39,082 nt of DNA from Promethearchaeota archaeon (GTDB taxonomy: Archaea > Asgardarchaeota > Lokiarchaeia > Sigyniarchaeales > SOKP01), in assembly GCA_018238625.1 (NCBI GenBank), contig JABCSY010000032.1, positions 1 to 39,082 of the forward strand, in the 5' to 3' direction. Shown here piece by piece: positions 5,253 to 39,082 of this stretch. The translations under genes and the position numbers were made by a program. The first letter of the stretch is position 1, and each line of letters starts with the position of its first letter. The notes beneath the pieces were generated by a model. The model had not been told where the DNA came from. It saw nothing but the letters and a program-made list of their open reading frames with translations, and did no database searches.

Positions 5253-8013
5253 CCTCAGGAATTACTAATACGAAATTACTTCCTTTCGAACGGTCTCCCT
5301 TAACTCTATCTTCGACCCATACCTTACCGTTATAAGATTCGATAATTCCTCTCACGAGCGACAATCCTAAACCCATTCCATAAACGCCCTTATCTTTATT
5401 GTTACCTCTCTGAAAGATCTTTTCTTTCATAGAATCTCCCACTCCAATACCGTTATCCATAAATTCCATTTTGAGAAAATCTTTGCCTACATTTCGTTCT
5501 CTTGAAATTCTAACGGTAATTTCTGTTATTAAATTCGTGTTATGTCTTATAGCGTTAATTAAAAGGTTTTCGAACACATCCTCCAAAAGAGCATTAGCTT
5601 TAATAATGAGTTTTTCTCCAAGAGAATCGACTCGAATTGCTAGTTTTTTATCGTTACAAGATTTTTCTACGAAAGAAATCGTATTTTTTAAAACATTAAG
5701 AATTTCAATTTTCTCTAAAATCTTTCCCGTTTCTTCAAGTTTAGAGAGCTTTTGCACGTTTGAAACTAGTTTTGCCCCTCTAATGACTTGCTCTTTGATA
5801 ATCGCAGCGTTTTCCTTTAAATTGTCGCGTTTTTCGGGATTATCAACTATTAATTGGCTAATTTGTATTCCAGATAAAATACTTTGTAAGATATTGTTAA
5901 TATCGTGTGCGAATAAGTCTTTATAGAACTCTGCTCGATTGTACGCTTCTCTATATTTTTCCTCCGATTCTTTTAATACTTGTTCTGCTTTTTTACTTTC
6001 ACTAATATCTCGAAAAATTCCTAATTTTGAAATACTCCCATCTAGATTTTTAATAGGTGTATCAATAACATCGTAAGTTTTTTGGGTCTTGAATGAAAAC
6101 CATTCCCCTCTTACCGTTTTTCCTTGAAGTACTTCTTTATTTTTGCACCGCGGGCAAGGTTCGTTCTGACCTTCAAAATATTTGAAACACTTCGTTCCTT
6201 CGAATTGCCCAAATTCTTTTGTAAGGATTGGATTTACATATTCGATATCATAATTTTGATCTACTATATAAACTCCATCTTCCATAGAATTTAAAATATT
6301 TAAGAAATTATCCCGCTCAAGTTGTAATTTCTCCTCTGCTTTTTTGCGCTCAGAGATATCTATTATTGAAATTAAAACTTTTGACCAATCTTCTTTAAAA
6401 CCAGCCACAATTTCGCATACTAATAAAATATATAACTTAACACCGTTAAATTTACTGTTAATAGATTCAGATTCAAACCTAGTCTTTCCTCCAGCAAAGT
6501 TTATTATTTGTTCTTTAAATGTGTCTAGGGATTCCTCTGTAAATACTTTGTCTAAACCAACAAAAAAGTCCTCTTTTTTATTAGCTTTGTATAATTCAAG
6601 TGTTTTCTGATTTACATTAATTATTTTTACCATGGATACGCATTTTTTAACTTCTTCGGGATTTTTATCGAAATAAACACGGAAATCTTTTATTCCAGAG
6701 TTCTTTAATGTCTCAATATATTTTTTTAACTCCGAGGCATCTTCTTCCCATAGTGAAATTGGAGAATTTTCAAATAAATATCTATAGTTTTCTTCAGATT
6801 CTTTTAGTTTCTGTTCTATCTTTTTTCTTTTGGTAATATCAATAGCGGCACCTTCAAAACGATTTTCTTTTTCAGATATTCGAGTAGAGATATTCAACCA
6901 AATGGGAGTACCATCTCTTCTGGTGACATTGATCTCATAATTCTTAACTTCTTTATTGTCACGGATTTCTTCTATTAATTCACTCCGCGCATTTGGATCA
7001 ATGTAATGCTCAATAGCATTATAATTTTCTAAAAACTCCTCTCGCGTATCATATCCAAATAATTTGGCAAAAGTATCATTACATTCTAAAAATTTACCAT
7101 CACTGATTCTTGACCAATATAACCCTACTTGTGCGTTATTAAATAAATATCGATATTTTGCCTCAGAATCTGTTAATTTTTCTTCCGTTTTTTTACGCTC
7201 AGTAATATCCAAAAGAGATGCTACGCTTTGTTTAGTCCCAGGAATCAAATCGAGGACTATGAAAATGTCTCGAATATCACCTTTTTTATCAGTTGCACGA
7301 AATTCATATTTTCTTAAAGCAGATTTAGGGTCTTTTCTTCGGAAGTAATGGAGCTTTTCCATCCTTCCCAAATCTTCCTCGACAATAAACTCTGTCCAGC
7401 TTTTTTTCCATTCGACCTCTTCCCTTGAATAACCAAAAAGCTCTTCAAACTGCTCATTTATAAGCGAGATCGTTGTGTCTTCCTCGACTATGATTGTTGC
7501 AGTTCCAGTATTTTCGAAAATGGCTTTATATTTTTCTTCAGATATATCAATTCTTTGTTTTAGCTCTAAAGTTAATGCTTTTAATTCTTTTTCAGATTTT
7601 TTCAATCTTTCTAAGATTTCTTTTTTTACCGTAATGTCTTCTGTATGAACAATAACTAAATCTGGGGGGATGAAACCATACATTACAGATAAAAATCTTT
7701 CTTCTCCCGTAGACATGTAATCATATTTCATTTCTCTGAAAATACTTACACGATCGTTAGCACAGCGAAATAATTCTTCTAAGATTTCTGGTCGATTCTT
7801 ATACATTTCTGAAGCTTTTGTACCTACATAATTCTTAATCATTCCTTTAGTTATTTTTTCAGCAGCATCGTTATAATCAAATAAAATTAAATCATCATCA
7901 ATTTTTTGCCACGAATATGTAGGAATAGGGATTCCTTTAAATAATTCTTTAAATCTTTTTTTTGAAGTTTTCGTTTTATTTGCGATTTTCCTCACTTTAT
8001 TTTTTTTAGACAA
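5245..8013 (-). CDS. Multi-PAS sensor histidine kinase (soluble)
   Basis: About five PAS/PAC repeats ending DITE/DISE.KK; H-box FAHDINN, N-box FENLLINAIRH, G boxes DNGIG and GMGLGL; no TM segment seen. Confidence 0.92.
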   Translation of the reverse strand: MSKKNKVRKIANKTKTSKKRFKELFKGIPIPTYSWQKIDDDLILFDYNDAAEKITKGMIKNYVGTKASEMYKNRPEILEELFRCANDRVSIFREMKYDYMSTGEERFLSVMYGFIPPDLVIVHTEDITVKKEILERLKKSEKELKALTLELKQRIDISEEKYKAIFENTGTATIIVEEDTTISLINEQFEELFGYSREEVEWKKSWTEFIVEEDLGRMEKLHYFRRKDPKSALRKYEFRATDKKGDIRDIFIVLDLIPGTKQSVASLLDITERKKTEEKLTDSEAKYRYLFNNAQVGLYWSRISDGKFLECNDTFAKLFGYDTREEFLENYNAIEHYIDPNARSELIEEIRDNKEVKNYEINVTRRDGTPIWLNISTRISEKENRFEGAAIDITKRKKIEQKLKESEENYRYLFENSPISLWEEDASELKKYIETLKNSGIKDFRVYFDKNPEEVKKCVSMVKIINVNQKTLELYKANKKEDFFVGLDKVFTEESLDTFKEQIINFAGGKTRFESESINSKFNGVKLYILLVCEIVAGFKEDWSKVLISIIDISERKKAEEKLQLERDNFLNILNSMEDGVYIVDQNYDIEYVNPILTKEFGQFEGTKCFKYFEGQNEPCPRCKNKEVLQGKTVRGEWFSFKTQKTYDVIDTPIKNLDGSISKLGIFRDISESKKAEQVLKESEEKYREAYNRAEFYKDLFAHDINNILQSILSGIQISQLIVDNPEKRDNLKENAAIIKEQVIRGAKLVSNVQKLSKLEETGKILEKIEILNVLKNTISFVEKSCNDKKLAIRVDSLGEKLIIKANALLEDVFENLLINAIRHNTNLITEITVRISRERNVGKDFLKMEFMDNGIGVGDSMKEKIFQRGNNKDKGVYGMGLGLSLVRGIIESYNGKVWVEDRVKGDRSKGSNFVLVIPEVD

Positions 8014-8284
8014 TTTTATTCCTTTTTGTCTAAATGTTCTTTAAGCTTTTTTAAAAAGGGTAAGATTATCATTAGAATATTAATTATAAGGTGAAAAACC
8101 TTGTATTTAAATATTTATTAAATATAATTTTGGATACACAAATAAATTACAAAAGTATTATTCGTGAAAGATTAATTTCACGAATTTTTTGACATATCCT
8201 AATAATGTATAGAATTACTTCTGCATATTACGGCTTAAACTTTTAGCTTAATTTCTATATTTTTTATAGAAATTTCAGTTTATT

Positions 8285-24267: not shown

Positions 24268-26439
24268 TCATTCTCGTGATATTGTTATTTTAATGTCTAC
24301 CGCTGAATAACCTTTAATAAAACTTAATAGGGGGTTGATGTCTAATTCCATTATTTCCGGGAAGTCGTTAACTAATTGTGAAAGGCGTAATAAAACGTCA
24401 ATTATTGATTCGATGTCTGACGCGCTTTCACCGCGTACTCCGTGTAAGAGACTAAAGATTCTTGTTTTTTGAAGCATTTCTGCTGCGTTATCTCTTGTAA
24501 ACTTGTAAGATAAAGCAAAGGAAACGTCTTTAAGAAAATTAGCATAAATGCCACCAGATCCAATCATTAACAACGGTCCAAATTGGGCATCTCGCGACAT
24601 GCCAATAATTAACTCGTTAACTTTCTTTTCCTGTTTAATATTTACCATTTCTTGTATTTCTACGCCGTAAATTTTGACATTTTGTGGACCAAACTTTTTT
24701 GCGTTATCAACTATTTGAATAAACGCTTCAAAAGCTTTCTCTGGAGTACCGATGTCTAAAATAATCCCTCCAACATCCGTTTTATGTATTATTTGTGGGC
24801 TTACGATTTTCATTACAGAATTTCCGATTACTTCTTGATATGCCATTGCTTCTCTGGGTGTTCTTGCTAATCTTGTTCTTGGAGATTTAATACCGTAACA
24901 TTCAAAAACCTCGCTTGTCTCGTGGCTTAAAAGAACCGTTCTCTCGTCGTTTCTTACGCTATTAAATATCTCTTTAACTTTTTCTTTTTGAACATCAAAT
25001 TTTGGAATTTCTATATCTTCAAGAGCAGATTTATTTAAAAAATGGTTATATTTGACTAATGCTTTAAGAGATTGAGCAGCTCTCTCTGGGAAAGGATAGC
25101 AAGGAATATGATGTTGCTTCAAATATTTGGTTGCCTCGACCATGGAAACGCCGCCTATAAGGGAACAAACAATTGGCTTATTCTGTAAGTGTTTTGACGA
25201 TATTTCATGCACTAATTCAGCTACATCGTAAGGGTGCGTTTGCGCTTGTGGGCTCATTATAATAAGAGCGCCATATGTTGTAACGTCCTCTTCTTTTACT
25301 GCTTCATGGCTGTTATCGTTATTTAGCCCAAAAACGGTTTTTATAGTAAATTTATATCTATCTGGAGTAGCGTCTCCAATTATATCTATAGGGTTAAATA
25401 TTGCTGCTTCTGCAGGTAAATTCTCTCGTAACATATGCAATATGGGTTCGGTAAATTGGGCAAATTTTAGCTCTTCGCGTTCAAATGCGTCAGTAGCTAT
25501 TATTCCTGGACCACCCGCGTTAGTTATGATCGCAAAGGAGTTTTTATTAGGAATTGGTTGAAATAAAAAGATTTCTCCGTAATCAAAAAGGTCAGCTATT
25601 GTTTTTGCTCTTAAAACACCACATTTGTGAAAAGCTAAATCGTATGCGATGTCAGAACCTGCTAACGCCCCAGTATGACTTGAAGCAGCCCTAGCTCCAG
25701 CCTCACTAACTCCAGCCTTCAATATAACAATTGGTTTTTTCCTTGCTGCTTTAGATACGACTCTTAGGAATTTTTCTCCTTTTTCTATGCTTTCTAAATA
25801 ACAAAGAATTACAGACGTATCATCATCGTTCGCTAAGTATTCAATAAAATCAATTTCGTCCATATCTGCTTTATTTCCTAAACTTATATTGCAAGAAAAA
25901 CCAAAAGCTTGGTCCATTGAGAAATCCATAAACGACGTTAGAAAGGCACCAGATTGAGAAATCATGGCGATGCGTCCCTTTTTGGGAGTATTAGCTGCAA
26001 AAGAACCGTTGTAAGAAGTCCCAATAAATCCTAAACAATTTGGTCCAATAATTCTCATGCCATACTTATTTGCAACTTCAATTAGCTCTTGTTCACGAGT
26101 TATTCCTTCGCCCCCGATCTCTTTAAAACCGGCGGTGATAACAACTAAACCCTTTATTCCTTTCTTTCCACATTCTTCTGCGATGGAATTAACAAACTTA
26201 CCAGGAATAACAAATAATGCTATGTCAATATCCTCTGGTACGTCTAAAACGCTCTTATAGGCTTTATATCCCAATATTTCTTTAGTTTTTGGATTAATAG
26301 GAAAAATTTTTCCAGAATATTTTGATTCAATGATATTTTTTAAAACGTTATAACCTACTTTACCGGGCGTAGCACTGGCTCCTATAACTGCAATGCTTTT
26401 AGGGTTGAAAAAATAAGAAATATCGGAAGTATCGTTCAT
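24268..26439 (-). CDS. Acetate/acyl-CoA ligase (ADP-forming), fused alpha/beta
   Basis: FNPKSIAVIGAS, IIGPNCLG, SQSGA, SLGNKAD, phospho-His SHTGALAG, TNAGGPG, HKTDVGG, ELDINP. Confidence 0.92.
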   Translation of the reverse strand: MNDTSDISYFFNPKSIAVIGASATPGKVGYNVLKNIIESKYSGKIFPINPKTKEILGYKAYKSVLDVPEDIDIALFVIPGKFVNSIAEECGKKGIKGLVVITAGFKEIGGEGITREQELIEVANKYGMRIIGPNCLGFIGTSYNGSFAANTPKKGRIAMISQSGAFLTSFMDFSMDQAFGFSCNISLGNKADMDEIDFIEYLANDDDTSVILCYLESIEKGEKFLRVVSKAARKKPIVILKAGVSEAGARAASSHTGALAGSDIAYDLAFHKCGVLRAKTIADLFDYGEIFLFQPIPNKNSFAIITNAGGPGIIATDAFEREELKFAQFTEPILHMLRENLPAEAAIFNPIDIIGDATPDRYKFTIKTVFGLNNDNSHEAVKEEDVTTYGALIIMSPQAQTHPYDVAELVHEISSKHLQNKPIVCSLIGGVSMVEATKYLKQHHIPCYPFPERAAQSLKALVKYNHFLNKSALEDIEIPKFDVQKEKVKEIFNSVRNDERTVLLSHETSEVFECYGIKSPRTRLARTPREAMAYQEVIGNSVMKIVSPQIIHKTDVGGIILDIGTPEKAFEAFIQIVDNAKKFGPQNVKIYGVEIQEMVNIKQEKKVNELIIGMSRDAQFGPLLMIGSGGIYANFLKDVSFALSYKFTRDNAAEMLQKTRIFSLLHGVRGESASDIESIIDVLLRLSQLVNDFPEIMELDINPLLSFIKGYSAVDIKITISRE

Positions 26440-29031: not shown

Positions 29032-29192
29032 ATCCTCCTTAGCTAATAAACCATAAATTATTTGTCAATTTTTTTATTTAAGATAATCAATCCTCTACAG
29101 ATTATTACTAAACTTAACCTAAAAATTATTAAAACAACAATTAAAACAATTATTAAAACAAACCAAATAATTAATAAAAAGGTAGATTTAAA

Positions 29193-29996
29193 ATTAAGAT
29201 CGCTGTAGCCGGTAAAGGCGGCGTAGGTAAGACTTTAATCGCTGGGACTTTAGCCCGACTTTTTGCTATAGATGGGTTTAAAGTTTTGGCCATTGACAAC
29301 GATTCAGCGATGAATTTAAGTTATACTTTAGGAATTAGCGAAGCGGTCAAATCAAAAATAGTCCCGATTTCAGAAATGAGAAAAATGATTGAGGAACGTA
29401 CGGTTGTTAAGGGCGCTGGTCCAGGCGTTTATAACATAACTCCAAACGTCTCCGATATTCCTGATAAATTTAAAGCTTCTGGTCCAAACAATTTACATTT
29501 GTTAGTATTAGGAGGAATTGTAGAGCCCGCCTCGGGCTGCTTATGCCCCGAAAACGCTTTAATCAGGACTTTACTATATAACTTGCTTGTAAAAAGAGAT
29601 GAAGTAGTAGTCGTTGATTTCGAAGCGGGTTTAGAACATTTAGGTCGCGGTACTGCTAAAGGAATTGACGTCATGCTAGTAGTAGCTGAACCTTCTCAGA
29701 AATCTTTAGACCTTTGTTATAAGATAATTAATTTATCCAGAAAATTAGGCGTAATTAACATCTACCTTATTGTAAACAAAGTGATTGACGAATCTCAATT
29801 AAGTATTATCAACAATCGTATTAAAGATTGGAAAGTTCCATTATATCACTCAATTCCTTTCGACTCCGAAATTGGAAAAGCTGATCTGAATGGAACCTCC
29901 CCTTTGGATTTTAATCCAGATTCAAAGGCTATTGGTGCTATTAAAAAATTATTTAGCAAATTAAAGCAGCTCAAAATTGAGTTATTTGATTTGTAG
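29193..29996 (+). CDS. cooC: CooC-type nickel-insertion ATPase (probable AUU start)
   Basis: In-frame extension upstream of the ORF-track start gives (M)KIAVAGKGGVGKT; also GCLCPEN, DFEAGLEHLGRGT, IVNK. Confidence 0.88.
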   Translation: MKIAVAGKGGVGKTLIAGTLARLFAIDGFKVLAIDNDSAMNLSYTLGISEAVKSKIVPISEMRKMIEERTVVKGAGPGVYNITPNVSDIPDKFKASGPNNLHLLVLGGIVEPASGCLCPENALIRTLLYNLLVKRDEVVVVDFEAGLEHLGRGTAKGIDVMLVVAEPSQKSLDLCYKIINLSRKLGVINIYLIVNKVIDESQLSIINNRIKDWKVPLYHSIPFDSEIGKADLNGTSPLDFNPDSKAIGAIKKLFSKLKQLKIELFDL

Positions 29997-30380: not shown

Positions 30381-30629
30381 TTACATAATATCGGATAAGC
30401 TAAGGTTCTGATCGTTGGCAATCGCTTTCCACTGCTCAATGGCTTCAAGAGCGTCTTTTTCGTTTATTTGTTCGATGGCGTACCCTGCGTGCACGATTAC
30501 ATACTTTCCAACTTCCGGGTTTAATATTAAAGCAGTTATAACGGTTTGCTGTATTCCGTCAAAGTCTACCAAAGCGGAACGCTTTTCGACGTTAAGCTGA
30601 ATAATTTTCCCAGGGATAGCGAGACACAT
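30381..30629 (-). CDS. hypC: Hydrogenase maturation chaperone HypC
   Basis: MCLAIPGKI, VDFDG, GKYVIVHAGYAI. Confidence 0.95.
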   Translation of the reverse strand: MCLAIPGKIIQLNVEKRSALVDFDGIQQTVITALILNPEVGKYVIVHAGYAIEQINEKDALEAIEQWKAIANDQNLSLSDIM

Positions 30630-31400: not shown

Positions 31401-32183
31401 TTAGATCTTATCAGCGTAAAAAGTTAACAGGTCGTCGAGCCAATTAAAGATTTCTTCTTTTGAAAGATTGTCAACGTTGAATTTTAACCGCTCTAATTCT
31501 TTGAGAAGGTTAATCATTTCTAAGGGAATTGATCTCTGGCACAATTCAAATAAAAGCTCGTTAGTTTTTGTGATTAACTCTTTTATCTTAGAGACTAAAG
31601 GTTCTATATCGGGCATATCTTCAAGACTAACGAGGATGTTAATAAGACTGAAAAGAAATTCCGTTTTGTTTCCTTTAAACGAGCTATCGAATCGATAGTA
31701 GTACCGATCTAAATACGCTAATGGCACTATTTCGTCGTAAGTATTTGCGATTTTAATTATCGATTTAATGTTTTTAAAAAGCAGCGAAGGAGCCCAAGTA
31801 AAAACTTGATAATTTGATTCTATATTTCCGCTGTGTATAACTGGAATAAACTTATGATCTTCTTTGAAGTGCCCAAAAGGGATAAGAATAAAATCTAGCG
31901 AATCTGAAGAGGTATAATCTTTAACATCAATATGCAAATTCTTTATTATGCTATTGAACACCGTCCTATGGTCGAGAATGTCGAACTCGATTTTATTTAA
32001 GCTTGGTTTGTAAATGTAAAAAATTAAACCTTCAAATCCTTGAAATTCTAAATCTAACGAAAAATTTAGCCTTTCTACAGATACGCTATCCGTGTCGAAT
32101 CGCAAATCTAACATTATATGCGAATAATTCTCGATGAATTGAAAAAACCAAGGCGGGGACCTCTCTTTATCGAACGAAATCAT
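31401..32183 (-). CDS. Hypothetical protein
   Basis: 260-aa ORF with GGAG SD; no motif recognised. Confidence 0.6.
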   Translation of the reverse strand: MISFDKERSPPWFFQFIENYSHIMLDLRFDTDSVSVERLNFSLDLEFQGFEGLIFYIYKPSLNKIEFDILDHRTVFNSIIKNLHIDVKDYTSSDSLDFILIPFGHFKEDHKFIPVIHSGNIESNYQVFTWAPSLLFKNIKSIIKIANTYDEIVPLAYLDRYYYRFDSSFKGNKTEFLFSLINILVSLEDMPDIEPLVSKIKELITKTNELLFELCQRSIPLEMINLLKELERLKFNVDNLSKEEIFNWLDDLLTFYADKI

Positions 32184-32439
32184 TTAATCTCAACTCCTAA
32201 TATATCTCATTAAGATGATTTATATATATTTTATACCTAATTTATACTTCTTCACTCGAAGAAATATGCTGCACATAAATAATTAACTCCAATATTTTTA
32301 ACATTTGCGATTCAAACCTATGATTGACTCTAAAAAGTTTAACATTAAAAAAAAAAGAATAATCTGATTTACAAGTAGGTTTAAAATTAAAATATATTGA
32401 AAAAAAAATATAAAAAAATAAAGTTATAAATTTGGTTAG

Positions 32440-33312
32440 TTATAAACCAAGTTTTTCTAACGTAGATTTCAATCGAATTCGGTGAAACTTCATGCCGATC
32501 TCGTCTGGAGTGAAGCCCATCGCTAAAGCGTAAAGCTCTGTGATATACATCACGGGAATAGCGTATTCGGTCTCGTATTTCTTACCTAAATCTCGTTGTC
32601 TCGTGTCGAATTGCTGATAACACGCGGGGCAATTTACAGCAATCACGTCTGCGCCAGATTTTTTGATGGCGTCCATCTTAATCTTTAAGTTAGCAAAGCC
32701 GTGTTCCTCGTAGGCGTTAGTTACAGCACTCCCGCAGCATAAAATTTCCTCTCCGTAATCTACAACCGTTGCTCCGCTTGCTTCTACGAGCTTCTTTAGC
32801 GTAGTTGGTCTCATGGGATCGTCTGACTCCATCCACTCGGCGGGTCGCATATAATGGCATCCTGGATGGACTGCAACTTTAAGACCGTTAAGTGGTTTAG
32901 TTATCGCTCCTTTGACCTTGTCTAAATTATCGCTCAACACATCAACAAAATGCTTAATGTCTATTGTGCCGTTATATTGTTTCCCGATCTTAGCGAGCTC
33001 TTTATTAACCTTACCCATTTTCCAAGAGTCGTGCTTTAATTGATGCTGGACCCCTCTAAGCGTATTTGTGCAACCATTACAAAGAGAAATTATGTCTTTT
33101 CCTTCAGCTTCGGCTAAACATAAGTTCCGAGCGCCAATCGCTAACCAAGCGTCGTTATCAAACGATTTCATGCCCGTAGGGTCAGGGCAACACGAGAAAG
33201 GTGCTTGCGACGTTTCAATTCCAACTTTATCAAAAACTTTTCTGGATGCCGCTTCTAGGAAAGGAATACGTTTTCCGATGTAACAACCCTCAAACATTTT
33301 ATATTCTGTCAT
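32440..33312 (-). CDS. hdrB: Heterodisulfide reductase subunit B
   Basis: Two CCG domains: GC...SCCP...CNGC and GCH...CCG...CPAC. Confidence 0.92.
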   Translation of the reverse strand: MTEYKMFEGCYIGKRIPFLEAASRKVFDKVGIETSQAPFSCCPDPTGMKSFDNDAWLAIGARNLCLAEAEGKDIISLCNGCTNTLRGVQHQLKHDSWKMGKVNKELAKIGKQYNGTIDIKHFVDVLSDNLDKVKGAITKPLNGLKVAVHPGCHYMRPAEWMESDDPMRPTTLKKLVEASGATVVDYGEEILCCGSAVTNAYEEHGFANLKIKMDAIKKSGADVIAVNCPACYQQFDTRQRDLGKKYETEYAIPVMYITELYALAMGFTPDEIGMKFHRIRLKSTLEKLGL

Positions 33313-33328
33313 TTTTTTATCATTCCTC

Positions 33329-33847
33329 CTATTTTAGCTTTTTATCTACTCCAAGGTTTTTTAATAAAGTTTGGAATTCATAAACATCTGGATCCGCAAC
33401 AGGGGGTAGACCTAACTGTTCTCGTCTACGACCTATAGGACCCTTCCCCGTATGTGAGATTGGGATCGCTTTTCCACCCTCAAAAATTGCTCTCGCTTGT
33501 GAATAAATAAATTCAGGCGCATTTCCATCCGCTACGCTCTGGTTCTTTAATAAGGTAAAGATCTCAGTTAATTCGATGTTCTGTGGGCAGACCTCATCGC
33601 ATGTATCGCACACTGTACAACCCCAAATTGCTAAGGGGTCGGCGTCAAATATCGCATCTTTGTACCCTAATAAGGCATTTAGTATATTACTCCTTGGATT
33701 GTACCCTGTAGTCGTATAGAAGTCTGTTGTTACGTTAGTAATTGGACAGTTGTCTGAACAACGACTACATTGGTAGCAATATTTAATCAAATCAGACCCG
33801 ATATGATAATCCATAACTTGTTTTCTAAATTCAAAATCTATTGTCAT
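33329..33847 (-). CDS. hdrC: Heterodisulfide reductase subunit C
   Basis: CYQCSRCSDNCP and CTVCDTCDEVCP 2x[4Fe-4S]; ATG at 33847 preferred over GTG at 33856. Confidence 0.92.
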   Translation of the reverse strand: MTIDFEFRKQVMDYHIGSDLIKYCYQCSRCSDNCPITNVTTDFYTTTGYNPRSNILNALLGYKDAIFDADPLAIWGCTVCDTCDEVCPQNIELTEIFTLLKNQSVADGNAPEFIYSQARAIFEGGKAIPISHTGKGPIGRRREQLGLPPVADPDVYEFQTLLKNLGVDKKLK

Positions 33848-33895
33848 TTTTTTCACTTTTTTCCATTTTTTCGTTCGTTTTTATTTAAAACATTT

Positions 33896-33970
33896 ATTGG
33901 CTTTTACCCCGCACAGGGGGCAGTTATATCCAATCTATTTTTTTTTATTGGACATTCATCCTAAGCCAAC
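33896..33970 (-). promoter_or_regulatory. Candidate SECIS-like RNA element for vhuU
   Basis: Minus strand: AUGA, then 9-bp helix AUGUCCAAU/AUUGGAUAU capped by an A9-UAG loop; side hairpin CCCC-CUGUGC-GGGG; outer helix GUUGGCUU/AAGCCAAU; 3' side of the core is AA rather than GA. Confidence 0.55.
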
Positions 33971-34108
33971 ATTCAACTTGCGAGAGTAGATCTCTTCGCC
34001 GTCCTCTTTTACTACAGTAATGTGGGCGGCACACGATAGTCAGCAGTCAAAACAACGGACTATCATTTCTAGGAAATTTACTACTCCTTCCGGAATTTCT
34101 TCGCTCAT
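33956..34108 (-). CDS. vhuU: Selenocysteine-containing hydrogenase subunit VhuU (separately encoded C-terminus of the large subunit), 50 aa
   Basis: MSEEIPEGVVNFLEMIVRCFDC-U-LSCAAH-ITVVKEDGEEIYSRKLNVGLG*; in-frame TGA at 34040-34042 lies at the Ni-ligand position of the L2 motif; absent from the ORF track. Confidence 0.92.
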
Positions 34109-34137
34109 TTTTTTTTCACAGTTTCCTTTTTTTTATT

Positions 34138-35442
34138 TTATTTAATCCAAGGGTCTGGTAATTTTAATCCTTCCAAGGCTTTATCTTCGAACACTTGTTT
34201 AGCAACGTGCATTAAAGTCTTCTCGATTCCAGCGATATTGTGGTTCGTTGCAACTAGAAGATTTAACTTCTTGCATATTCCTTGATCGTCAGACCAGATA
34301 TTATACAACAATATACCTCTGGGAGCTTCAACAACGCCAACACCGTTACCTTCTCGCGGTTCGACATCTAACGTCTTGCAATCGGGATTCACTATGTCAG
34401 GGTCTTCAAGATATTGTGCGATTAATTCAATTGATTCTACTGCTTCAATAATTCGCGCCCAATGATAGGCAAACGTGTGATGCGAAACATCGCCAATTTT
34501 GGCTTTCATTTCCTTTAAAGCCCCATCAGCTAATGGTGTTGCCATTTTATCAGCGCAATTCGTCATTGCTAGAGTATTAGCTCTATAAATGCCATCAGGA
34601 TAACCCGCTGGTTTATAATACGTGTGTGTAGCGTAAGAATGATCAGGAATGTGTTCTCCTATAACATCCAGATAATCGTGAACATCATAATCAATCCTTT
34701 TACCATCGGGGGTGACTATTCTTAGATCGCCATCGTAAATGTCGTGTACTCCGTTTTTCGTCATACCAAGATAATAAGTTGGCACAACACCTACATTAGC
34801 AACGACATCCCAATAATCAGTTACAACCTTTAGCGCAATATCAACGGTCTTTAGCATGAAATCAACTTGCTCAGGAACCATTTTTAAGAATTTATCCCTC
34901 GCGGTTTCGTCCATCGGTTTCTTCATTCCACCCACAATCGCGGAAACGGGGTGAACTGACTTCCCACCGATTTCAGCGCATAATTTTTGGCCGAAATCCA
35001 TCATCTTTAACGCCATCGCTCCCACATCGGGCATCTTATTAATCACATGAACGACATTCCTTAACGCAGGGTCTGCAAAAGGCCCTAAGAGGAAATCAGG
35101 TGCCGCTAACGCGTAAAAGTGCAACATGTGCGATGAATACTGCTTCGCATTCATTAACAATTGTCTAAGTTTATATGCTGGCGTTGGAATTTCAACCCCC
35201 CAAGCGTCTTCAACCGCTTTAGTTGGAGCTAAGTGATGAGGAATAGGACAGATTCCGCAAATCCGTGGAGTAATCCTTGGTACATGCTCACAATATCTGC
35301 CCTCGCAGAATTTCTCAAAAAATCTCGTCGAAGTGATATTAAATTGGGCTTCTTTTACCTTACCATCGTCTCCAATAACAATTCTTAATCCTCCATGCCC
35401 TTCTAAACGTGTGACTGGTTCAACTATTATTTCTTTTACCAT
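34138..35442 (-). CDS. vhuA: F420-non-reducing (group 3c) hydrogenase large subunit lacking the L2 motif
   Basis: EPVTRLEGH, L1 motif RICGICPIPH, GG..VHP, EAPRG, AT.HN; ends ...LPDPWIK with no DPCxxCxxH; ATG at 35442. Confidence 0.92.
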   Translation of the reverse strand: MVKEIIVEPVTRLEGHGGLRIVIGDDGKVKEAQFNITSTRFFEKFCEGRYCEHVPRITPRICGICPIPHHLAPTKAVEDAWGVEIPTPAYKLRQLLMNAKQYSSHMLHFYALAAPDFLLGPFADPALRNVVHVINKMPDVGAMALKMMDFGQKLCAEIGGKSVHPVSAIVGGMKKPMDETARDKFLKMVPEQVDFMLKTVDIALKVVTDYWDVVANVGVVPTYYLGMTKNGVHDIYDGDLRIVTPDGKRIDYDVHDYLDVIGEHIPDHSYATHTYYKPAGYPDGIYRANTLAMTNCADKMATPLADGALKEMKAKIGDVSHHTFAYHWARIIEAVESIELIAQYLEDPDIVNPDCKTLDVEPREGNGVGVVEAPRGILLYNIWSDDQGICKKLNLLVATNHNIAGIEKTLMHVAKQVFEDKALEGLKLPDPWIK

Positions 35443-35454
35443 TTTTTTTTCCAC

Positions 35455-36771
35455 CTATCTATAATTTTTATTAGTCGCTAACGTAAACTTCTCAGCGAAG
35501 CCTAGCTTATCTTTTATCTGGACAAGCAGTTCCTCTTTTGATAAAGCTACGTTATAACCTTTCGTTACTACATCGACATATCGTTCAATTTGGTCAACGT
35601 TCCAAGCCGTTTGTCCGTAACAACCAGAACAAGGCGTATTGACTTTAAGGCACAATCCACCACATCCCGCTTTTGTTATAGGCCCCGCGCAGAGATATCC
35701 TTGCTCGATTAAGCAATCCTCCATGTTAGGAAGTCCTTCGTAATCACGCTTTACTTTTGTCATTTGAGACTTACTCCCAATTTCTCGTGGACAAGTATCG
35801 CACACAGTAGAAATCTCTGTAAAATCTCTATGATTTTTCAAAAATGCCATAACCTTTGTTGCGATGTTTCCAGTTTCATTTGGGAGATTAGCTAACGAAG
35901 TTTGAGCTTCTCCTGTTTTTTTTACTTGCTGTAATATATCTCCAGCAAGGTCAAAACCCGCCATTAGTGGTAAGTTAAGGAAAAGCGTTAAAAACTCGTA
36001 CAAATTCTTTTTATCGCCTGAACTGATTTGTTCGAGGTTCTCTGTCATCTGTGCTAGTTTACTTACTCTCGGAGAGACTGATTTTGCAGGACCTAAGCAT
36101 CCAACGCATGGGTTTCCGTCGTCAGTACATTTTAAAGTACACCCAGTACTCGTAATGGGGCCAAAACACAATGTACCTTTCTCTAAAAGACAATTCTCGT
36201 TGTTTAAAGAGCAATCGTTGCAGAATGCTGTTTCACTCATAGGTTGTGGTTTTTGTCCAAGTAAGAATTCAACTGCCGAAAATATAGCTTCAGGTTTAGG
36301 AGGGCAACCCCCCATAAAAACATCAACCTTAATAATTTCGTCAAGAGGAACTATTTTACTGGCAAAACCAGGCATATGTTCTTTTGGTTCCTTAGGATTC
36401 TCGTTAGTAATGGATTCTGCTTCTGTAAACTTCCTAGCGATTGCTTCTTGGATGTCCCATTGATTGGCTAATCCATGAACGTTTCCATAACACGCGCACG
36501 AGCCGAAAGCAATAATGAGTTGACATTTTGCTCTCATTAACTTAGCGTTTTCTATGTCTGCATTGGTTCTCATACTGCCTTCAACAAAACCTACGAGAAT
36601 GTCTCCGTCTGGTCGTGCCTTTAACGAATCGTGCTTGAAATCAACGACAGCTGGCCAATAAACGATATCGAGTGCTGGAAGTATTTTCAACAATCCCAAA
36701 TGTGCGTTCAACAGAGATTGGTGGCAACCCCAACAGTCGCTACTTTGCATAAATGCTACTTTAACTGCCAT
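35455..36771 (-). CDS. vhuG: Group 3c hydrogenase small subunit with duplicated C-terminal Fe-S module
   Basis: DCWGC, VEG, GSCACYG, GCPP; two copies of CxxC...CL...G.LC.GPIT..GC...C.....PC.GC.G. Confidence 0.9.
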   Translation of the reverse strand: MAVKVAFMQSSDCWGCHQSLLNAHLGLLKILPALDIVYWPAVVDFKHDSLKARPDGDILVGFVEGSMRTNADIENAKLMRAKCQLIIAFGSCACYGNVHGLANQWDIQEAIARKFTEAESITNENPKEPKEHMPGFASKIVPLDEIIKVDVFMGGCPPKPEAIFSAVEFLLGQKPQPMSETAFCNDCSLNNENCLLEKGTLCFGPITSTGCTLKCTDDGNPCVGCLGPAKSVSPRVSKLAQMTENLEQISSGDKKNLYEFLTLFLNLPLMAGFDLAGDILQQVKKTGEAQTSLANLPNETGNIATKVMAFLKNHRDFTEISTVCDTCPREIGSKSQMTKVKRDYEGLPNMEDCLIEQGYLCAGPITKAGCGGLCLKVNTPCSGCYGQTAWNVDQIERYVDVVTKGYNVALSKEELLVQIKDKLGFAEKFTLATNKNYR

Positions 36772-37032
36772 TTTTTATCATTTATAGTTTTTATTTATGA
36801 TTTTTGATTTATAAAATATTAGTTGTGATTATTTAATCACGAATTAATAAAAAAAGTTCTGTTTTTCTTAGCTTTAGAGTAAAAATTTTGTTATAGTTTT
36901 ATGGTAGATTTAGAATGATCATTCAATATCGAATATTTTTAGTTTGGGTTAATTAGCGCAGAGATTTATTTTGAATACTCATTCTTATTGAATATTATTT
37001 GATCGTTTTTTTACAAATTTGTTATTAGCATT

Positions 37033-37289
37033 AAGGAATTTGATAATATATTTTAAAAAAAAGGAGAATAAACTAAAAGAAATTAACTTTTCCTTTCAGA
37101 AAAGCTATATTTCTTCATTTTGAATACTCGGTATTATCGAATAAACTTACTTTTACAGAGAATAATGATTTTTAGCAATAATTGATCTTTCCTTTTTATA
37201 GTTTGATAATATTATGAAGGAATTTGATCATTTCTTTTAAAAAAGGAGAATAAGTCAAAGAAAAATTGACTTTTCCTTTGAGAAAAACT
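37033..37289. repeat. Imperfect direct repeat (2 copies, 184-bp offset) containing inverted repeats
   Basis: AAGGAATTTGAT...AAAGGAGAA-N19/20-TTTTCCTTT.AGAAAA.CT at 37033-37106 and 37217-37289. Confidence 0.8.
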
Positions 37290-37436
37290 CAAATATAAAA
37301 CTTTTCTTTTTCTGAATAATGATTAATTAAATTTAAATTGAGTATAATATAATTTAAATTATCGATTTTTAATCGAATGATTCTTTAATGAATCTTTATT
37401 CACATAAAAAAAAACAAAACAACTAGGTAAAAAAAA

Positions 37437-37670
37437 ATGGTTGACATTACAGAAACTTTGGATGTTTCGGGCGAGGTTTGCCCATATCCAGACGTAAAAA
37501 GTAAAAGAAAAGTTAAGAAAATGAATTCAGGAGAAGTTCTCGAGATTCTTGTCGATTATCCTCTCTCAGCTGAGAGGATTCCTGAGACAATGGAATCTTT
37601 AGGCCACAAAGTTCTTTCTAACGAAAAAACAGGTACTTCGGCGTGGAGAATCCTGATTCAAATAAAATAA
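37437..37670 (+). CDS. tusA: TusA/SirA/YedF-family sulfur (or selenium) carrier
   Basis: LDVSGEVCPYP, GEVLEILVD. Confidence 0.9.
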   Translation: MVDITETLDVSGEVCPYPDVKSKRKVKKMNSGEVLEILVDYPLSAERIPETMESLGHKVLSNEKTGTSAWRILIQIK

Positions 37671-37683
37671 GGTGAAAAAATAA

Positions 37684-38712
37684 ATGGAATTTATGTATGC
37701 TTTAATAGGTGGGCTTATAGTTGGAGCCCTATTTGGTTTCGTGTTGCAACGTGGAAGATTCTGTATGAACTCTGCCTTCAGAGACATAATCCTATTGAAA
37801 GAATTTAAACTGGCAAAAGCAGTAGTTATCGCCTTGATAACTCTGATGATCGGTTTCGCTATATTTGCTATGGCTGGAGTAATTGCTTTAGATCCAAAAC
37901 CTTTAAAAATATGGGGTGCGGTTGTCGGAGGTCTAGTATTTGGTATTGGAATGGTTCTTGCAGCGGGATGTGCTAGCGGAACCACATATCGAGTAGGAGA
38001 AGGTATGATGGGTTCTGTCGTAGCTGGTTTTGGATTAACACTCGGAGCTTTAATGACTAAATTCGGCGTTTTAAATGATGCTATGAAATTTTTGCAAACT
38101 ACAGTAATTGGAACAAAACTTACGCTTTTTGGAGAATTTGGAGAACTCACACCGATTTTTATGCTTATCTTAGGTATTGTCGGTGCTGCATTGACATTTT
38201 ATTTCTGGGGATTACCAGCGCTTAAAAATAGAAAAGAAGGCGAGCCTTTAATAAAATTTGACAACGCAGTTGAATCAATCTTTAAAAAAGCTTATCCTTG
38301 GTGGGTTACTGGAATCGTTATTGGTATAATCGGAACTGCAGCTTATGTAGTTGCTAACGGAGTGCTAGGAATTACTGGAGGGTGGATGGATCTAAGCTTA
38401 TGGCTTACTACAGCAGATCCTGTCGCATGGGCAGGTTTTATAATTGTTGGTATTATCCTTGGAGCTTTCCTTGGCGCTATTATTAGCGGCGAATTTAAAA
38501 TTAGAGTTCCTAAAGATGGATTGACATTATTAAAACAATTGATCGGCGGAATTTTAATGGGTTTTGGCGCTGTAACAGCAATGGGATGTAACATTACCAA
38601 TATCTTAGGCGGTGTTCCACAGCTTTCATTACATAGTATTATTACGGGAGCCTGTATAATGTTTGGTTCTTGGATAATGGCTTATCTTCTCTTCATGAGA
38701 GATAGCGATTAA
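37684..38712 (+). CDS. YeeE/YedE-family thiosulfate/selenium-compound transporter
   Basis: FGFVLQRGRFCMN, FGIGMVLAAGCASG, LMGFGA..AMGCNI; three conserved Cys. Confidence 0.92.
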   Translation: MEFMYALIGGLIVGALFGFVLQRGRFCMNSAFRDIILLKEFKLAKAVVIALITLMIGFAIFAMAGVIALDPKPLKIWGAVVGGLVFGIGMVLAAGCASGTTYRVGEGMMGSVVAGFGLTLGALMTKFGVLNDAMKFLQTTVIGTKLTLFGEFGELTPIFMLILGIVGAALTFYFWGLPALKNRKEGEPLIKFDNAVESIFKKAYPWWVTGIVIGIIGTAAYVVANGVLGITGGWMDLSLWLTTADPVAWAGFIIVGIILGAFLGAIISGEFKIRVPKDGLTLLKQLIGGILMGFGAVTAMGCNITNILGGVPQLSLHSIITGACIMFGSWIMAYLLFMRDSD

Positions 38713-38734
38713 GGAAAGGAGTTGACGAAAAAAA

Positions 38735-39082
38735 ATGGCTCGATTAGGAATTCTTTTTTTTGATGGACCTTACCAAACGCAAGCTGCTGAAACGGTTGTT
38801 AAGATATCCAACGCGGCGTTAGACAAAGGAATTGATGTACGCATCTTTTGCTATATGGACGCCGTGAATGCCGTCTTAGATAAGCAGAAGAAAATTGAGG
38901 GTATCTTTAACATCGAAGAAGGGTTTAGGGAAATATTAAATAAAGGAGCCACCGTCAGACTATGTAATCTATGTCTTTTAGTCAGAGGTACTATGAAAAA
39001 CTGTTTGACAAAGGAATGCGGCGACGTGAAGCGAGCAGGTACGCCTGATCTCGCGAAGATTATAGAAGAAACAGATAAACTT
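38735..39082 (+). CDS. DsrE/TusD-like sulfur relay protein (runs off the window end)
   Basis: MARLGILFFDGPY...IFCYMDAV...LCNLCLLVRG...DLAKIIEETDKL; open to the window end; absent from the ORF track. Confidence 0.85.
   Translation, partial: MARLGILFFDGPYQTQAAETVVKISNAALDKGIDVRIFCYMDAVNAVLDKQKKIEGIFNIEEGFREILNKGATVRLCNLCLLVRGTMKNCLTKECGDVKRAGTPDLAKIIEETDKL

Follow-up and report, generated by a model that had tools for sequence, protein, structure and literature searches.

Introduction

The relay of imported sulfur to a heterodisulfide reductase (Hdr) has been proposed before. In the Fig. 5 legend of the Nerearchaeum marumarumayae preprint (10.1101/2025.07.22.663070), import by TsuA and persulfides on TusA and DsrE are followed by reduction at Hdr with H2 from a group 3c hydrogenase. 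A Bathyarchaeia paper loosely connects hdr and dsrE (PMC11631310), and the only hydrogenase of strain MK-D1 was drawn with an unnamed XSH/X-S-S-X pair (PMC7015854). Here we describe DNA of a Promethearchaeota archaeon (Lokiarchaeia; GenBank assembly GCA_018238625.1) in which a hydrogenase-Hdr operon, vhuG-vhuA-vhuU-hdrC-hdrB, stands back to back with a sulfur import and relay cassette, tusA-yeeE-dsrE. The stretch analysed, referred to below as the window, is the whole of contig JABCSY010000032.1 (39,082 bp, C95 in our numbering), which ends inside dsrE.

The linkage of the cassette to the hydrogenase is conserved; it recurs in many genomes and several gene orders, far beyond chance. Our favoured reading, held with moderate confidence, is that a YTD-like cassette for sulfane sulfur or thiosulfate would feed carrier-bound sulfur to HdrB, with H2 as the reductant. 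An earlier note on this DNA had offered a carrier-bound persulfide as the HdrB substrate as an alternative to its main idea, selenium supply, and comparative genomics makes the alternative the best-supported reading. For the substrate of Hdr in non-methanogenic archaea the recurrent pairing names candidates, the persulfides of TusA and DsrE; Asgard H2 metabolism is, moreover, central to syntrophy models of eukaryote origin. In the full-text literature we found no paper reporting a conserved gene linkage of cassette and hydrogenase; supplements, which lay outside the search, may hold such maps.

The hydrogenase-Hdr operon and the sulfur cassette

Genes in the window were identified from open reading frame calls with Pfam and NCBIfam profile searches. 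Every gene that the earlier note had placed in the two operons was confirmed in place, and the 665-bp intergenic region it had described between them is exact.

32440-33312, minus strand: hdrB, with two CCG domains (Pfam CCG in 2 stretches, 101.5 bits; NCBIfam TIGR03288, 269.7 bits against a cut-off of 345)
33329-33856, minus strand: hdrC, 4Fe-4S dicluster subunit (Pfam Fer4_8 and related; NCBIfam CoB_CoM_SS_C, 73.4 bits against a cut-off of 160)
33921-33961, minus strand: hairpin like a selenocysteine insertion sequence (SECIS), overlapping the vhuU stop codon (AUGA, 9-bp stem, A-rich loop, then AA)
33956-34108, minus strand: vhuU, 50-codon selenoprotein gene, C-terminal Ni-binding motif DCULSCAAH (in-frame TGA for selenocysteine, Sec, at 34042-34040)
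34138-35454, minus strand: vhuA, [NiFe] hydrogenase large subunit of group 3c type, N-terminal motif RICGICPIPHH (Pfam NiFeSe_Hases; best NCBIfam model VhuA, 460.8 bits against a cut-off of 800)
35455-36771, minus strand: vhuG, small subunit, 438 aa (Pfam Oxidored_q6; NCBIfam VhuG, 226 bits in 3 stretches against a cut-off of 450)
36772-37436, no strand: divergent spacer, 665 bp (four TGAAT-N4-ATTCA sites and a degenerate direct duplication of about 183 bp)
37437-37670, plus strand: tusA-like sulfur carrier gene, Cys15 in a CPYP motif (Pfam TusA, PF01206, 75.9 bits against a cut-off of 28.6)
37684-38712, plus strand: yeeE/tsuA-like membrane transporter gene (PF04143, 250.5 bits, profile positions 1-310 of 310)
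38735-39082, plus strand: dsrE-like sulfurtransferase subunit gene, cut by the contig end (Pfam DsrE, 59.9 bits; full 120-aa form on contig C108)

VhuA, VhuG, HdrB and HdrC score under the NCBIfam equivalog cut-offs, yet the models concerned are the best-scoring ones. Both metal-binding motifs of a group 3c large subunit are present, RICGICPIPHH in VhuA and DCULSCAAH in VhuU, where Sec, on a separate peptide, replaces the initial Cys of the Ni-binding motif at the C-terminus. The vhuU peptide with its TGA was found in 15/15 related loci having flank beyond vhuA. The hairpin at its stop codon (fold -9.8 kcal/mol, z -1.8) has no Rfam match, nor has any part of 32000-39082; it fits the AUGA_AA / AAAAA form of the SECIS elements described for Lokiarchaeia (PMC11227280). 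The 438 aa of VhuG compare with about 286 positions in the VhuG model and include two similar Cys-rich C-terminal iron-sulfur (Fe-S) segments; the cluster-binding part of the protein appears duplicated, and VhuG orthologs in related loci align across the same length.

HdrA and VhuD/MvhD are not encoded in the locus. The source genome (4.29 Mb in 201 contigs, 97.9% complete, 7.6% contamination) has pairs of an HdrA-like gene (1 TGA) and vhuD (2 TGA) on contigs C32 and C119, in agreement with the hdrA-frhD pairing reported for Asgard archaea (PMC11227280), and we infer that HdrA-VhuD from these contigs joins VhuAGU-HdrBC. The same genome has a second [NiFe] hydrogenase on C109, adjoining an 852-aa frame that bears MvhD. 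On contig C201 (17733-27889), genes for an HdrB-like protein and for MvhD occur together with a segment (25252-25659) that shares 67% identity with the 5' portion of vhuG, and C201 gave no match to a [NiFe] large subunit.

The cassette transporter, the only PF04143 protein of its genome, aligns to the Spirochaeta thermophila YeeE structure (PDB 6LEO) with E 4e-61 and with all three Cys motifs matched. Its C27, C96 and C302 are invariant in nine diverse sequences; the conserved Cys of the S. thermophila protein we take to be C22, C91 and C293. The alignment with Escherichia coli TsuA runs end to end (32% identity, E 4e-46), whereas E. coli YedE gives half-length matches only, with the halves in swapped order (E 4e-17). 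The best NCBIfam models are NF052577 (TsuA of Spirochaeta; 270 bits against a cut-off of 400) and NF041049 (TsuA/YeeE; 155 against 645), and on the YedE/FdhT models the scores are 136 bits against 350 (NF033796) and 52 against 200 (TIGR04112). Scores and collinearity therefore point to YeeE/TsuA rather than to the YedE-type selenium transporter that the earlier note had entertained, and by its sequence the protein is a divergent YeeE/TsuA relative, below equivalog level and not YedE-like.

The C15-P-Y-P motif of TusA is invariant across 18 sequences. Among Loki, Thor, Heimdall, Hod and Bathy loci, TusA identity is 67-88% against only 43-57% for the transporter, and a conservation so unusually high fits a protein with several fixed partners. 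TusA is uninformative on sulfur versus selenium, being 35% identical to E. coli YeeD and 38% to YedF. In 8/8 archaeal DsrE sequences Cys77 aligns with E. coli TusD Cys78, a residue with an active role (PMC13293266), and no Cys was found in DsrF or DsrH. On the NCBIfam models for DsrEFH, TusB/DsrH is over its cut-off (51.9 bits against 49.2), and TusC/DsrF (39.4 against 94) and TusD/DsrE (28.7 against 89) are under theirs.

The window itself holds dsrE only; an adjacent dsrE-dsrF-dsrH trio is found in 36/52 related loci and on contig C108 of the same genome, whose end lies within yeeE and whose overlap with the window, 92% identical, takes in the final 1,274 bp of the latter. C108 reads yeeE-dsrE-dsrF-dsrH-hypE-hypD-hypF, with the same downstream genes in loci L019 and L020. 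It is more likely a strain variant than a paralogue, because of the 92% nucleotide identity, the ending of both contigs inside the overlap and the 7.6% contamination. The cassette thus sits in the middle of a supercluster of structural and maturation genes of the hydrogenase. Between hypE and hypD of C108 (8377-9032 in locus L006) lies an opposite-strand MntA/HepT-like type VII toxin-antitoxin pair, and several relatives have about 0.8-1 kb of extra DNA there. The source genome gives 6 TusA and 9 DsrE matches in all, and at 97.9% completeness no match to DsrC (PF04358) or to sulfite reductase (NIR_SIR, PF01077).

Conservation of the linkage

Transporter loci were gathered by a protein-pattern scan (52 loci), and 16 query proteins were placed on them by tblastn. 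In 46/52 tusA is directly upstream of the transporter; the six exceptions are three loci whose flank is shorter than 100 nt and three yeeE genes that stand as orphans. A dsrE gene follows the transporter in 39/52 and was found in none of the seven Chloroflexota loci, and vhu genes lie inside the fetched flank in 21/52.

In a quick maximum-likelihood tree, in which the branch leading to E. coli TsuA is very long and the root is uninformative, the Promethearchaeota transporters form four groups (L140 is not in the tree). Clade A (27 entries, support 100) includes the window, and the divergent vhu operon adjoins the cassette in 19/27. Three of the remaining entries have less than 400 nt of upstream flank and five are without the vhu operon, four of the five being a subclade of orphan yeeE without tusA or dsrEFH. 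The gene order differs elsewhere in Promethearchaeota. In L104 and L140 the cassette stands immediately ahead of vhuG on the same strand, and in the Promethearchaeum group (L041, which is strain MK-D1, with L049 and L052) tusA-yeeE-dsrEFH is followed by vhuG-hdrC-hdrB-vhuA.

Outside Promethearchaeota the partners change but stay Hdr-linked modules. In the Hodarchaeota-type loci L144 and L160, tusA is divergent from mvhG, mvhA(Cys) and a gene whose HdrA2-like product includes a VhuD domain; L160 continues downstream with MntR-like, QmoC-like and second HdrA2-like genes. Three Bathyarchaeia loci (L156, L157, L161) have the cassette, an Lrp-like regulator gene and then mvhG-mvhA(Cys). Another, L067, has hypDCF, ferredoxin, NuoC-like, HdrB and group-4-like large-subunit genes, the cassette and then a GcvH-like gene. 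HdrA2-like and QmoC-like genes stand just before tusA-yeeE in L166 (Methanosarcinales) and L150 (Anaerolineae), and HdrC-like matches do so in L148, L152, L158, L163 and L173. In a profile scan for distant transporter loci, the best 80 were all from Asgard, Bathyarchaeia, Methanosarcinales, Chloroflexota or unclassified genomes, with none from Desulfobacterota.

Some of these loci hold further Hdr-related or lipoate-related genes. In L067 (5453-8624 and 14185-14889), which has a GcvH-like gene near by, HdrB is encoded between the NuoC-like and large subunits of the group-4-like [NiFe] hydrogenase, and this hydrogenase resembles the HdrB-interacting Ehd/Ehe hydrogenases (PMC9723716). In L019 (5986-7280) and L029 (4584-5882) an extra segment separating vhuG from tusA contains another, distantly related hdrC-hdrB-like pair (27-42% identity), and a similar pair lies upstream of vhuG in L098 (8842-10139), which has no cassette. 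Beside the cassette of L043, L044, L046 and L048 (L048 13350-16538) there are opposite-strand genes for DUF166, DGC, DGC, a DGC-GcvH fusion, a ferredoxin and a 128-aa unknown protein. The presence of GcvH, which is lipoate-protein-like, in this second Loki cassette clade recalls the sHdr-LbpA systems.

The divergent spacer

The spacer between vhuG and tusA has TGAAT-N4-ATTCA sites at 36912, 36972, 37313 and 37389-37402, the last being the only perfect copy and standing 35 bp before tusA. These are 4 of the window's 9 matches (at most one mismatch), with 4.7 expected for the whole window. The motif is found in 12/12 divergent spacers of related loci, with at least 3 copies in 11, at a density of about 6 per kb against a background of 0.2 per kb. 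It is also in 6/9 vhuG/hypE spacers without the cassette, and in the two co-directional loci it is upstream of vhuG and absent upstream of tusA. It looks like a putative operator of the hydrogenase operon that in the divergent layout is common to tusA, and a regulator binding it is probably common to both operons. The co-regulation of cassette and hydrogenase that the earlier note had suggested is plausible, since both promoters share this palindromic motif.

At 36965-37289 the spacer also contains a degenerate direct duplication of about 183 bp (73-83% identity), each copy ending in an A-rich hairpin-like stretch; L021, the closest relative, has no such duplication. Both operons are represented among the contigs of four RNA libraries (two studies with three samples in all), which are about 93% identical with a range of 90-99%, and one contig of 2,066 nt spans 37388-39082 and beyond, taking in tusA, yeeE and dsrE. 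Such contigs indicate presence in RNA libraries only, which is not proof of a single transcript or of an expression level. None of the four runs has a contig in 36840-37293, and no conclusion follows from this.

A proposed sulfur relay to HdrB

Each step of the pathway that we propose is drawn from homology and gene neighbourhood. The YeeE/TsuA-type channel would take up thiosulfate or polysulfide, Cys15 of TusA, in the role of YeeD, would pick up the sulfur on the inner side, and Cys77 of DsrE in DsrEFH would receive it from TusA. VhuAGU would split H2, and HdrBC could use the electrons to reduce the carrier-bound persulfide or thiosulfonate to sulfide; if HdrA and VhuD, encoded elsewhere, take part, electron bifurcation would reduce ferredoxin as well. 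Because the genome is without sulfite reductase and DsrC, reductive assimilation of sulfur could follow this path too, and the reverse reaction may be possible in H2-producing cells such as MK-D1. The candidate substrates are testable with recombinant proteins or a few cultured strains.

A wider form of the proposal would have the X-S-S-X of Mvh/Vhu-Hdr in Asgard archaea and Bathyarchaeia be the protein-bound persulfide from YeeE-TusA-DsrEFH. The closest archaeal relatives of eukaryotes would then conserve energy by reducing imported sulfane sulfur or thiosulfate with H2, in a bifurcating, ferredoxin-yielding metabolism with a shared TGAAT-N4-ATTCA regulator. This is tentative, and taken as a whole we think it rather unlikely.

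How often the cassette is absent bears directly on the relay. In a co-occurrence sample of 68 genomes of the same family as the source, the transporter was found in 16/68 (absence meaning no match at E 1e-20) and a strong VhuA ortholog in 57/68 (E below 1e-200, counted among the matches listed). We also retrieved 17 further hydrogenase loci, 14 from transporter-less genomes and three from others. Remnants mark some of the gaps. In genome G177 (L106) vhuG faces hypEDF across a spacer that retains 19 residues of tusA, and yeeE persists as an orphan at another site (L105); a 25-residue tusA fragment remains in G207 (L103), and in G231 a piece of yeeE of 75 residues, containing four stops, is left at a distance of 2 kb from vhuA. 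Most simply, the cassette would have entered between the two divergent operons long ago and then been lost repeatedly. The cassette is an optional add-on and not a fixed part of the enzyme.

Several points weigh against the relay to HdrB. No transporter match was found in 42/57 hydrogenase-bearing genomes of the family, many of them 95-100% complete, and in 8/14 loci from transporter-less genomes (L090-L095, L099, L101) vhuG faces hypE-hypD-hypF directly. Genomes without the cassette keep the hydrogenase and therefore the enzyme works without it, which weighs against the cassette as supplier of the enzyme's only substrate; the argument is tempered by four cassette-less genomes that retain 3-7 TusA and 1-6 DsrE matches. 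The adjacency in clade A could have been inherited once, its members being kin and not independent. The fourth transporter group (L043-L048, L051) has no hydrogenase in the fetched flanks, of which only those of L048 reach 10 kb on both sides. The transporter, VhuA, VhuG and HdrB are all under NCBIfam equivalog cut-offs. The direction of the reaction may be H2 uptake or H2 production, and the MK-D1 enzyme is thought to make H2 (PMC7015854). Recombinant TusA and DsrEFH type II of a cable bacterium took no sulfur from thiosulfate in vitro (PMC13293266). The support comes from comparative genomics. A complex prediction for HdrB and TusA scored 0.01, which is neither support nor counter-evidence.

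Alternative explanations

The alternative that survives best, although we consider it unlikely, is plain assimilatory uptake, in which thiosulfate or sulfane sulfur would be imported for cysteine, Fe-S clusters and thio-cofactors, and the cassette would stand beside the hydrogenase through shared ancestry of the locus or because the spacer tolerates it, without any transfer of electrons to or from Hdr. E. coli TsuA/TsuB is such an assimilatory thiosulfate importer (PMC11073785), ready-reduced sulfur would be useful to a genome without sulfite reductase, and the patchy, often-lost distribution fits an accessory nutrient system. YeeE and YeeD suffice for assimilation, however, leaving DsrEFH unnecessary, and the association with Hdr, Qmo and hydrogenase recurs across gene orders, enzyme types and phyla. 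The earlier note had included sulfur and Fe-S synthesis in its supply idea; a role in sulfur supply to Fe-S clusters or cysteine is possible, and the selenium part of that idea is not supported.

An oxidative or disproportionating direction, with sulfane sulfur passing to an Hdr-type enzyme to give sulfite and hydrogenase or ferredoxin taking the electrons, appears improbable. H2 production from sulfane oxidation is energetically unfavourable, and the partner in the window is a hydrogenase. DsrC and DsrAB are both missing from the source genome, and the window locus has no GcvH-like gene; the cassettes of L067 and of the second Loki clade do have such genes, a hallmark of sHdr, in their vicinity. 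For this direction also speak the YTD or DsrEFH type II cluster, which has the same gene content and is tied to sulfur disproportionation or oxidation (PMC13293266, PMC12998232), and the sHdr systems, which are always accompanied by TusA and DsrE (PMC11094781).

The main idea of the earlier note was a supply of selenium, taken up by the transporter and passed along by the carriers, for the making of Sec and for the Sec hydrogenase, a tempting story that the present analysis corrects and that we now regard as very unlikely. It could draw on the Sec found in VhuU of every Promethearchaeota hydrogenase beside a cassette, on the standing of the cassette transporter as sole PF04143 member in its genome, and on the best NCBIfam model of TusA, that of E. 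coli YedF (60 bits against a cut-off of 79). In L150 the genes for HdrA2, a QmoC-like protein, TusA and YeeE have a LysR gene beside them (7251-8219, minus strand) that, at 233 bits, falls just short of the 250 required by the 'selenium metabolism-associated LysR' model. Against these stand the unmet YedE models and the half-length, permuted similarity to YedE given above, and YedE goes unmentioned in the accessible text of the Asgard selenoproteome paper (PMC11227280). The earlier note had also looked to selD downstream; at that place the member of the PurM family is hypE (HypE model 378.7 bits, SelD model 53.7), and selD lies elsewhere, on C148.

The distribution of the transporter is independent of the Sec trait, of which the TGA in VhuU is itself a mark, in both directions. 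On one side are the 42 of 57 hydrogenase-bearing genomes without it; Sec-VhuU is intact in 13/14 loci from transporter-less genomes, and vhuU with TGA in 16/17 of the further hydrogenase loci. On the other, the cassette adjoins Cys-type hydrogenases in 7 loci, with the motifs DPCFSCATH (L144, L160), DPCFACATH (L156, L157, L161), DPCISCSAH (L166) and DPCFACTDR (L067). SelD is over the cut-off in 0/5 of the genomes with a cassette beside a Cys hydrogenase (best 84 bits against 125; their completeness is not given). The earlier note had reckoned both with a linkage that was not conserved and with a transporter distribution independent of Sec; the former was not found, the latter was. On balance, selenium does not explain the linkage.

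Some observations on the Sec genes may be added. In L099 (8640-8970, genome G057), the one exception among the 17 further hydrogenase loci, the N-terminal part and the CULSCAAH part of vhuU are in different frames with extra letters between, which may be an assembly error or a broken gene. C148 of the source genome (29888-32282) carries two selD genes on the same strand about 0.7 kb apart, each with one in-frame TGA, and multiple selD genes are reported for Loki and Thor genomes (PMC11227280). No tRNA-Sec was found over the cut-off in the source genome and Aragorn gave only 13 tRNAs, from which no inference is drawn for a metagenome-assembled genome with intron-bearing tRNAs.

Hydrogenase maturation, with the cassette supplying sulfur for the Ni-Fe(Se) site or Fe-S clusters, is hardly credible: the one-strand order tusA-yeeE-dsrEFH-hypE-hypD-hypF of clade A and the hypC and CooC-like ATPase genes on the other side of the hydrogenase operon would suit it, but hypEDF, which follows the cassette in 13 clade-A loci, is not within 10 kb downstream in L027, L030, L033, L040 and L053 and was not found within that distance in MK-D1, L104, L144/L160 and the L156-type loci, cassette-less genomes retain the same hydrogenase and hyp genes, and we know of no [NiFe] maturation step that uses TusA or DsrEFH.

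Genes flanking the hydrogenase operon

Three further genes lie on the hdrB side of the operon.

31401-32183, minus strand: conserved gene, 260 aa, family not recognised, downstream of hdrB (beside hdrB in most related loci, 46-93% identity)
30381-30629, minus strand: hypC, hydrogenase maturation chaperone gene (Pfam HupF_HypC, 78 bits; position conserved)
29180-29996, plus strand: MinD/CooC-like P-loop ATPase gene, GKGGVGKT and CLC motifs (Pfam, NCBIfam; conserved beside hypC)

The 260-aa protein has no Pfam, NCBIfam or Atlas match; an AlphaFold2 model hints at a beta-rich N-terminal half and a helical C-terminal half, and with a pLDDT of 46 is unusable. The reading frame of the ATPase is open from about 29178, upstream of the listed TTG start, and the P-loop is within this extension. 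No ATG, GTG or TTG precedes the P-loop, and therefore an unusual start codon is likely. By functional analogy the ATPase may be a helper of Ni insertion, which we take to be its probable role.

Comparison with known systems

YedE/YedF (FdhT) shares the Pfam family of the transporter, and TusA of the window is as near to YedF (38%) as to YeeD (35%). The transporter halves are permuted relative to YedE, however, both selenium-linked models score far under cut-off, and there is no co-occurrence with the selenium trait. The Nerearchaeum model comes closest in idea; unlike the present linkage, it is a one-genome metabolic-map hypothesis, and the accessible text of the preprint, supplements aside, mentions no conserved gene linkage ('gene cluster' has 0 occurrences).

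With YeeE(TsuA)-YeeD(TsuB) of E. coli and Spirochaeta thermophila (PDB 6LEO, 8J4C) the window shares a full-length collinear PF04143 protein, its three Cys and a TusA-family neighbour. It differs in that its transporter, which shares 32% identity with E. coli TsuA, reaches neither TsuA cut-off, and in that tusA comes first, DsrEFH follows and the context is hydrogenase and Hdr, not cysteine synthesis. The YTD or DsrEFH type II cluster (PMC13293266) has a transporter, TusA, DsrE with a single active Cys and two small DsrF/H-like proteins, as here; its usual DsrC/DsrAB partners are missing in the source genome, the gene order differs, and the standard DsrE and TusB/DsrH models recognise the window and C108 proteins, whereas type II is reported as unrecognised.

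The sHdr-LbpA systems with TusA/DsrE3 and the YeeE-like SoxT (PMC11094781, PMC11582611) likewise combine an Hdr-type enzyme, a YeeE-family importer and TusA/DsrE carriers. The window locus has no lipoate-binding protein or doubled hdrC1B1/hdrC2B2 and does have a hydrogenase; in comparison with sHdr, a reductive direction is more likely for the window system. Mvh/Vhu-Hdr of hydrogenotrophic methanogens matches it in the group 3c subunits, the split-off Sec VhuU, HdrB with two CCG domains and HdrC, and Sec hdrA-vhuD is present elsewhere in the genome; here, however, the host is not a methanogen, hdrCB is joined into the hydrogenase operon and VhuG has an extra Fe-S segment.

In summary, the parts of the system are of known kinds, namely YeeE/YeeD, YTD or DsrEFH type II, TusA/DsrE-fed sHdr and Mvh/Vhu-Hdr, and the idea of a relay is not new.

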